Positions 4,886 through 5,508 of a stretch of 42,114 nt of DNA are shown one piece after another (positions within the stretch are counted from its first letter, which is position 1; each line of letters opens with the position of its first letter). The notes beneath the pieces were generated by a model, which was not told the origin of the DNA, ran no database searches, and saw only the letters and a list, made by a program, of their open reading frames with translations. The stretch covers positions 1 through 42,114 of the forward strand of contig JAAFJX010000031.1 of assembly GCA_013299045.1 (NCBI GenBank), in the 5' to 3' direction. The DNA comes from Cytophagales bacterium. Lineage in GTDB: Bacteria; Bacteroidota; Bacteroidia; Cytophagales; Bernardetiaceae. The translations under genes were made by a program, and so were the position numbers.

Positions 4886-5012
4886 CAGTTTTGAGTGTAG
4901 TTTAACATAGTTTGTTTGAAAAGTTAAATTTAATAACTTTTTAGGAGGATTCTATTTTTTTTGAGATAAAATTATGCCGAATTTTGCATAAATTTCAATA
5001 ATTTTAAAGTTT

Positions 5013-5314
5013 GCTGTTTATGTAGTCGTCCCTTAAAAAGTCGGCATAAGAACAAGCACATAAACCAGCGAATGGATTTTTCTTTGATTGGGTGCTTTTA
5101 TAAAACATAGTTGCACAGAAAATCTCACCCTCTGACATTTGAGCCATTCGCTTTTGTCTGATGCAAGGCAGTGCAGGCCGTAAGAAGCTCTTGAAGTTTT
5201 ACCAGTTATTTGACAAAATAGGCTAAAAACTAAGAGATTTTAAAGTAGAAATACTTGTTTAATTTACTGATAACAAACACTTTAGATATTTTTTAAGGGA
5301 CGACTATGTAGTAG
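5013..5314. repeat. Copy B of the modular repeat. An inverted P2 module (5013-5040) and a half-module plus P2 (5261-5314) form an inverted-repeat pair about 240 bp apart (MITE-like) in the 620-bp MVP/xth intergenic gap.
   Basis: tagtcgtcccttaaaaa at about 5024-5040 is the reverse complement of tttttaagggacgacta at about 5290-5306. aatttactgataacaaa at 5261-5277 matches the reverse complement of P1 (ttatcagtaaat). Confidence 0.45.
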
Positions 5315-5508
5315 AACGATGAAAAGAAGCCTGGTTTTGTCTATGGGTTGCAGACATTGCGCTTCTTTAGTTCCAAGCCAACCTGTGCCTGTTCTACCAA
5401 CATGGTTTTGAAAGCCTTATCTTTTATTTGTTGGGGTTTTTAATGCAAAATATTTTCGTAAAAGTTTGAATGTAAGCCAAACTTGGTTGAGTACTTCGCA
5501 CCCACACC

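Follow-up and report, generated by a model that had tools for sequence, protein, structure and literature searches.

The segment bounded by an inverted repeat upstream of the MVP-like gene of this Cytophagales contig is very probably a miniature transposon (MITE) that carries the ends of IS5-family insertion sequences (IS). The window, meaning the whole stretch of 42,114 nt that was analysed, holds this segment in the gap at 4886–5508, between the start of the MVP-like gene and the stop of an exonuclease III-family gene, and the features of the gap and their relatives elsewhere in the window are listed in Table 1. The first-pass annotation had named a non-autonomous mobile element as an alternative to a structured RNA, and it is this alternative that the evidence favours: the segment is 284 bp long (the size range used for MITEs being about 50–1000 bp), is bounded by terminal inverted repeats (TIRs) that are the same as in autonomous IS5-family IS, is flanked by a target-site duplication, has further family copies in the window, and has neither coding capacity nor a transposase gene. 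Since a transposase gene and any detectable remnant of one are lacking, the element is regarded as an IS derivative rather than as an autonomous IS. The element lies between the two genes, with the MVP start codon 138 bp from one of its ends and the exonuclease stop 200 bp from the other, and its minus-strand orientation corresponds to that of the parent IS (left end first) and to the direction of the MVP gene.

Table 1. Positions of the element, its parts, the adjoining genes and the other family copies in the window.
Feature	Position	Strand	Basis or remark
MITE, TIR to TIR, 284 bp	5023–5306	-	Perfect TIRs, flanking direct repeat, no transposase remnant
TIR TAGTCGTCCCTTAAAAA, resembling the IS right end	5023–5039	+	
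TIR, resembling the IS left end	5290–5306	-	
Left direct repeat TATGTA; duplicated core at least TG (5021–5022)	5019–5024	+	Read directly in the sequence
Right direct repeat TATGTA	5305–5310	+	Read directly in the sequence
Subterminal module from the IS left end, with TTATCAGTAAATTAA	5224–5289	-	Alignment with IS left ends
MITE interior, 184 bp, GC 0.41, containing gcaaggcagtgcaggccgtaag	5040–5223	.	
MVP upstream region, likely promoter and 5' UTR, intact after insertion	4886–5022	-	About 4888–4974 weakly aligned with L002
3' flank of the exonuclease III-family gene, outside the mobile element	5307–5508	-	No repeats, Rfam matches or minus-strand terminator-like site
MVP homologue, 813 aa	2444–4885	-	Pfam MVP_shoulder 8e-30, plus Vault_3 and Band_7
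Exonuclease III-family gene	5509–6270	-	
Family copy, outer TIR cut by the contig start	1–139	+	Right TIR degenerate (TTTTTAGAAAAAGCTA, then GA TA)
Partial or rearranged copy between glmS and the MVP 3' end	2202–2275	+	Degenerate TIR TTTTTTAGAGATGACTA
72-nt mini-copy: TIR, subterminal module, module complement, TIR	32722–32793	+	Flanks TA-AT and GT-TA
Solo TIR TAGCTGTCCCTTAAAAA, 2 mismatches, 25 nt from the mini-copy	32819–32835	-	

The inverted repeat is perfect at 17 of 17 positions, with TAGTCGTCCCTTAAAAA in the first arm and its complement in the second. Such a repeat had been described before at about 5024–5040 with a spacing of about 240 nt; it is indeed present, but its first arm lies at 5023–5039 and the two arms are 250 nt apart. 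The string gcaaggcagtgcaggccgtaag, which had been quoted from the bracketed segment, was located at 5163–5184. In 1000 dinucleotide-preserving shuffles of the gap (4886–5508), the longest perfect inverted repeat reached 14 nt at most and was usually 9–10 nt, and the 17-mer, when up to three mismatches are allowed, is found five times in the window, where 0.14 occurrences would be expected. The outer edge of each TIR arm is overlapped by the 6-bp direct repeat TATGTA, and these two repeats are a target-site duplication in a TA-NN-TA target.

The same ends and the same target were found in many other genomes. A scan of one genome per prokaryotic species for the exact 17-mer TAGTCGTCCCTTAAAAA returned it in more than 110 DNA stretches at least, counted among the matches listed, and nearly all of these belong to Bacteroidota, with Prevotella, Bacteroidales, Rikenellaceae, Chitinophagaceae, Cytophagales, Cyclobacteriaceae, Flammeovirgaceae and Flavobacteriaceae among them. 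In 75 of the 114 listed copies, the 17-mer lies within 300 nt of the end of its stretch with the interior running off that end, while only four show the opposite layout, and the distances to the stretch ends cluster near 33, 59, 78 and 120 nt, which are assembler k-mer values. Because the interior runs off at the stretch ends, the 17-mer is read as the outer tip of a repeat that is present in multiple copies and interrupts assemblies. The flanks of the 116 listed copies have T at -4 (106 of 115) and A at -3 (109 of 115); two bases that vary come next, and the TA belonging to the TIR itself follows. These two bases agree between the left and right flanks in 11 of the 20 inverted pairs among the matches listed, against 1/16 expected. 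The conserved T-A at -4 and -3, together with the duplicated NN across the listed copies, therefore points to TA-NN-TA as the target before insertion. Duplications of 2, 4 or 6 bp all fit, since every register predicts the same empty site, in which 5018 is joined directly to 5311 (...GCTGTTTATGTAGTAGAACG...).

A few of the listed matches fall outside Bacteroidota, in Ruminococcaceae, Proteobacteria, Pyrinomonadaceae and Desulfovibrio. Two of the matches outside Bacteroidota lack the TA-NN-TA flank and look like chance occurrences. Those in Pyrinomonadaceae and Desulfovibrio keep this flank, the Pyrinomonadaceae locus also having a homologous transposase ORF, and both may be real copies or binning contamination.

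The autonomous elements that carry these termini were recognised from pairs of inverted copies of the 17-mer (up to three mismatches) in the listed loci. Among the matches listed, seven long elements of 1433–1500 bp (L016, L032, L036, L037, L071, L074 and L112) were found beside 13 short elements of 77–408 bp, the latter including copies of 234, 241, 249 and 262 bp elsewhere and the 284-bp element described here. A phmmer search with the L037 transposase recovered 10 homologous ORFs in the fetched loci, eight of which lie in the seven long elements; the L032 transposase is split into two ORFs and that of L071 is shortened. Family-library scans covered two transposases, those of L037 and L016, both of 453 aa, which contain the Pfam domains DUF772 and DDE_Tnp_1 and score 453 and 488 bits, respectively, against the NCBIfam model NF033578 "IS5 family transposase" (cut-off 275). 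As for a named IS, plasmid annotations offered only the generic "IS5 family transposase" for this protein, at less than 50% identity.

The two ends of the full-length IS can be told apart. The right ends read ...ACTTTTTAAGG or ...AGTTTTTAAGG, and the transposase stop codon of L016 and L037 is part of the right TIR (...TTT TAA), with six of the seven listed transposases ending in ...SF or ...TF. The left ends begin with the TIR, which is followed by about 13 nt that vary, TGATTATCAGTAAATTAA and a GCAAG...CTTGC hairpin; the transposase ATG comes about 115 nt in from the tip. The conserved subterminal motif TGATTATCAGTAAATTAA, which lies about 13 nt inside the left TIR, may be a second protein-binding site. 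In the window element, the stretch at 5224–5289 aligns with the IS left ends of L074, L017, L033, L051, L101, L034 and others. Read on the minus strand from 5306 to 5224, it shows the TIR followed by TTATCAGTAAATTAA (5259–5273, complement on the plus strand) and then diverges, with neither the hairpin nor the ATG. Since the TIR and TTATCAGTAAATTAA are separated by about the same distance as in the full-length copies, the end at 5224–5306 is identified as an IS left end that faces MVP.

The remainder of the element cannot be matched to an IS in the same way. Compared with the right ends of seven full-length IS, the interior (5040–5223) gave scores equal or close to those of shuffled sequence, exceeding the mean by about 2 sd at most and always staying under the shuffle maximum, and tblastn with seven transposases detected nothing beyond chance in the element. 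The minus strand across 5023–5039 reads ...CCG ACT TTT TAA, that is, T-F-stop, an ending that IS right ends typically have, and the frame that runs into this stop within the TIR is open for 68 codons, although no homologues of the conceptual 68-aa peptide were found. It was considered whether the interior might be a remnant of the 3' end of a transposase gene, and this idea is unproven, as neither tblastn, nor the IS right ends, nor the 68-codon frame revealed any similarity. The interior also has no second copy in the 42-kb window. A 9-nt inverted repeat, AGCGAATGG / CCATTCGCT, occurs inside it at 5066–5077 and 5145–5154, and about 0.1 of such repeats are expected by chance per 250 nt.

As had been stated in the first-pass annotation, the gap has no ORF of 60 aa or more; the longest ORF overlapping it is of 47 aa (5004–5147, minus strand) and has no Pfam match. 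The exact sequences of this ORF and of the exonuclease III-family protein are absent from the protein records searched. The description of the bracketed segment as moderately GC-rich is correct relative to the AT-rich flanks (0.23 at both 4886–5022 and 5224–5306) but not relative to the window average, as its GC content of 0.41 (5040–5223) compares with 0.418 for the whole window.

Since the segment adjoins an MVP homologue, it had been suggested that it might encode a structured small RNA tied to MVP, i.e., a bacterial counterpart of vault RNA with the inverted repeat as its closing stem. In line with this proposal, the whole element folds better than its shuffles (z = -2.98), and the GC content of the interior equals the genome average, unlike that of the AT-rich flanks. 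However, in a folding scan such as had been called for, the interior without the 17-nt arms is equal to shuffled sequence on both strands (z = 0.43 for the minus strand, z = 0.02 for the plus strand), so the fold signal of the whole element comes from the TIRs alone. The whole window was searched against Rfam at gathering thresholds, and 4800–5600 also at E up to 10. No family reached its threshold for the element, and the matches in the gap did not rise above chance, the best of them having E = 0.068 and 21.8 bits where the gathering score is 40; the vault RNA family (RF00006) was absent from the matches at E up to 10 in 4800–5600. The only real Rfam match in the whole window is a tRNA-His at 33932–34005.

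The proposed RNA also fails to travel with MVP. The closest MVP homologue, in locus L002 of a Cytophagales bacterium, shares 85% protein identity, and its upstream region is unrelated to that in the window except for about 90 nt beside the ATG. Moreover, about 87 kb from five MVP loci, encoding four different MVP proteins, contain no copy of the 17-mer with up to three mismatches, and the termini of the element are those of a transposon that occurs in many genomes beside varied, mostly unexamined genes. With no Rfam match, no fold signal in the interior and no conservation with MVP in L002, the analogy with vault RNA was not upheld and is considered very improbable; nothing other than position was found to tie the segment to MVP.

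The gap is also the upstream region of MVP, and the inverted repeat might accordingly serve in regulation as part of the MVP promoter or 5' UTR, for instance as a pair of operators for a dimeric regulator or through a long-range DNA loop. Operator pairs can consist of inverted repeats set far apart, and the motif is found at three other intergenic sites in the window. Such a role is nevertheless extremely improbable and has been largely refuted by the cross-genome motif and transposase evidence, as Bacteroidota families that are only distantly related have the motif in identical form, on either side of transposase genes; in addition, it is accompanied by target-site duplications, is absent upstream of MVP in relatives, and marks places where assemblies break. 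The first-pass annotation had accepted that its proposal would fall if the segment were simply the promoter or 5' UTR of MVP, and this description suits only the proximal part, at about 4886–5022, and not the remainder. A sigma-70-like match, TTGAAA-16-CATAAT, lies at 4998–4971 on the minus strand and is a consensus match only; promoter and terminator scans of the gap (4886–5508) gave match numbers at shuffle level.

In addition to L002, the bacterial MVP genes of L005 and L006 were compared, and the three share 64–85% protein identity with the MVP of the window. Their neighbourhoods differ, with a response regulator and DUF6952, an amylase and enolase, and Maf and aspartokinase in L002, L005 and L006, respectively. 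The bacterial MVP gene thus appears to relocate often across genomes.

Apart from the element upstream of MVP, the window contains three further family sites, at 1–139, 2202–2275 and 32722–32835, all of which are intergenic, and tblastn revealed no transposase anywhere in the 42 kb. The subterminal module at 5224–5289 is common to the copies at 1–71, 2219–2271 and 32735–32766. In the first of these sites, 1–71 is 80% complementary to 5224–5294, and 91–122 matches 5262–5293. The degenerate TIR TTTTTTAGAGATGACTA of the second site is in inverted orientation and abuts the subterminal module, and the mini-copy at 32722–32793 forms a near-perfect hairpin (DNA fold of -13.7 kcal/mol, z = -5.4). The window copies are therefore mosaic, with TIR and subterminal modules in varied combinations and orientations. 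The copies at 32722–32835 sit between convergent hydrolase and phosphoesterase genes.

Modular, mosaic copies that are all intergenic, one of them a near-perfect hairpin of 72 nt, would also be expected of a REP/BIME-type repeat, which is maintained by the host, a domesticated enzyme mobilising or maintaining it, and acts as a transcript-stabilising or insulating hairpin. REP/BIME repeats were defined here by an imperfect palindrome of 20–40 nt and a RAYT (HUH) transposase. The 17-mer is not palindromic, unlike REP units, and the enzyme found within the same termini is a DDE transposase of the IS5 family rather than one of the RAYT-type HUH enzymes. Because of the non-palindromic unit and the DDE transposase, the element is not assigned to REP/BIME; target-site duplications also speak against this class, which is very unlikely.

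The family copies also account for where assemblies end. The contig starts inside the family copy at 1–139, which explains its end at base 1. An independent assembly contig, L001, maps to 97–5052 of the window with 100% identity, and one of its ends falls inside the copy at 1–139, while the other lies within the MITE, at a distance of exactly 30 nt from the outer TIR edge. If this 30-mer recurs elsewhere in the sample, the break of L001 would be a graph effect of k=31, which we take to be the k-mer of the assembly collection of L001. Contigs found via the sigma-factor gene break elsewhere and are uninformative on the element.

Other inverted repeats were noticed in the window as well. Between the convergent glmS and MVP genes, 2309–2396 contains a 29-nt inverted repeat (83% complementary, 30-nt spacer) that resembles a bidirectional terminator and has no relation to the MITE family. 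Another inverted repeat, of 21 nt (AACAAAAAAAAATGGCTGCCC / GGACGGCCATTTTTTTTTGTT), at 7319–7364, between an ECF sigma-factor gene and a SusD-like gene, is likely a bidirectional intrinsic terminator. A third, of 32 nt (88% complementary, 16-nt spacer), lies at 15013–15092 among overlapping ORF calls. Furthermore, 34406–42114 carries three tandem paralogous genes encoding about 1010–1020 aa each, the third of which is truncated at the contig end; these contain many internal repeats of 126 bp (42 aa, TPR-like), and 300-nt blocks are 66–95% identical between the copies.

Taking the element to be a MITE of this IS5-family group, its origin is best accounted for as follows. The 17-bp termini are the sites recognised and cut by a DDE transposase encoded elsewhere, and the element was presumably mobilised in trans by such an enzyme present in this genome. 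Insertion into a TA-NN-TA target (TATGTA) produced the direct repeat on both sides, at a landing site between the exonuclease stop and the MVP promoter region where it disrupted neither gene, and the end at 5224–5306 retains subterminal sequence of an IS left end. The perfect TIRs and the perfect duplication suggest that the insertion was fairly recent. No empty site was found in the MVP upstream region of L002, either with or without in-silico removal of the element, and the upstream neighbour of MVP in L002 is a different gene, so that synteny differs from that of the window. In the absence of such a site, we infer the mobility of the element at this locus rather than observe it. Two scans of the JGI metagenomes, one with the element-specific left junction and one with the TIR plus the subterminal motif, returned zero matches. 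The element could be a one-off, given that its interior has no match among the IS right ends examined and that neither the window nor the JGI metagenomes yielded another copy of it.

The insertion is probably neutral for MVP, which is a default assumption based on the fact that the promoter-proximal stretch at about 4888–4974, shared with L002, is intact. Two other roles deserve mention. The IS left end that the element has kept faces MVP; in full-length copies this end lies ahead of the transposase start, and a co-opted element could use it to drive or modulate MVP transcription. Alternatively, since MVP has family copies on both sides, the copies at 2202–2275 and 5023–5306 could act together as a composite transposon to move the gene, and such movement would fit the complete lack of conserved synteny around bacterial MVP genes. 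That either of the two applies has only a slim chance of being correct.

The identification of the element as a MITE explains both the repeat module that recurs in this contig and the break points of the contig and of independent assemblies. The exact 17-bp end, which is shared by an IS5-family group and its miniatures in Bacteroidota, may together with the TA-NN-TA target aid the annotation of metagenome-assembled genomes and the interpretation of contig ends. The identification as a MITE also removes, as unsupported, the tempting link of a bacterial MVP to a neighbouring "vault RNA". The likeness to the eukaryotic vault RNA (RF00006) is limited to the MVP neighbourhood, and the element differs from it in having no match in sequence or structure, no conservation with MVP, and boundaries that are the ends of a transposon.

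Among known non-coding repeats, the Correia elements (CREE) of Neisseria, which the window element resembles in the way it works, are TIR-bounded sequences of 100–160 bp that are inserted at TA-containing targets; they are abundant in intergenic regions near the start of genes, to which they can contribute promoters or processing sites. No autonomous parent of the Correia elements is known, whereas full-length IS with the same ends were found for the window element, which moreover belongs to another phylum and has another TIR.

Of the same kind as the window element are the IS5-family-derived MITEs of Porphyromonas gingivalis, namely MITE239, MITEPgRS/MITE464, MITE700 and BrickBuilt, which are short, non-coding and intergenic, with TIRs that equal those of resident full-length IS5-family elements or nearly do so, interiors unrelated to the IS, and short, variable target-site duplications (PMC4596501). 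Like them, the window element comes from Bacteroidota, is non-coding, and combines IS5-family TIRs with an interior that resembles none of the IS right ends compared. Their TIRs, however, are unrelated (GAGACC... and ACGTCAGTTCGA in P. gingivalis against TAGTCGTCCCTTAAAAA here), the window element lacks internal tandem repeats, and its parent IS is distinguished by a transposase of 453 aa and a TA-NN-TA target. The TIR string TAGTCGTCCCTTAAAAA itself had no match in the searchable literature. With the IS5-family IS themselves (NF033578; DUF772 plus DDE_Tnp_1), as found in other Bacteroidota, the element shares the termini and one subterminal region, and it differs from them in being 284 bp long without a transposase, the IS being 1.43–1.50 kb long with one.
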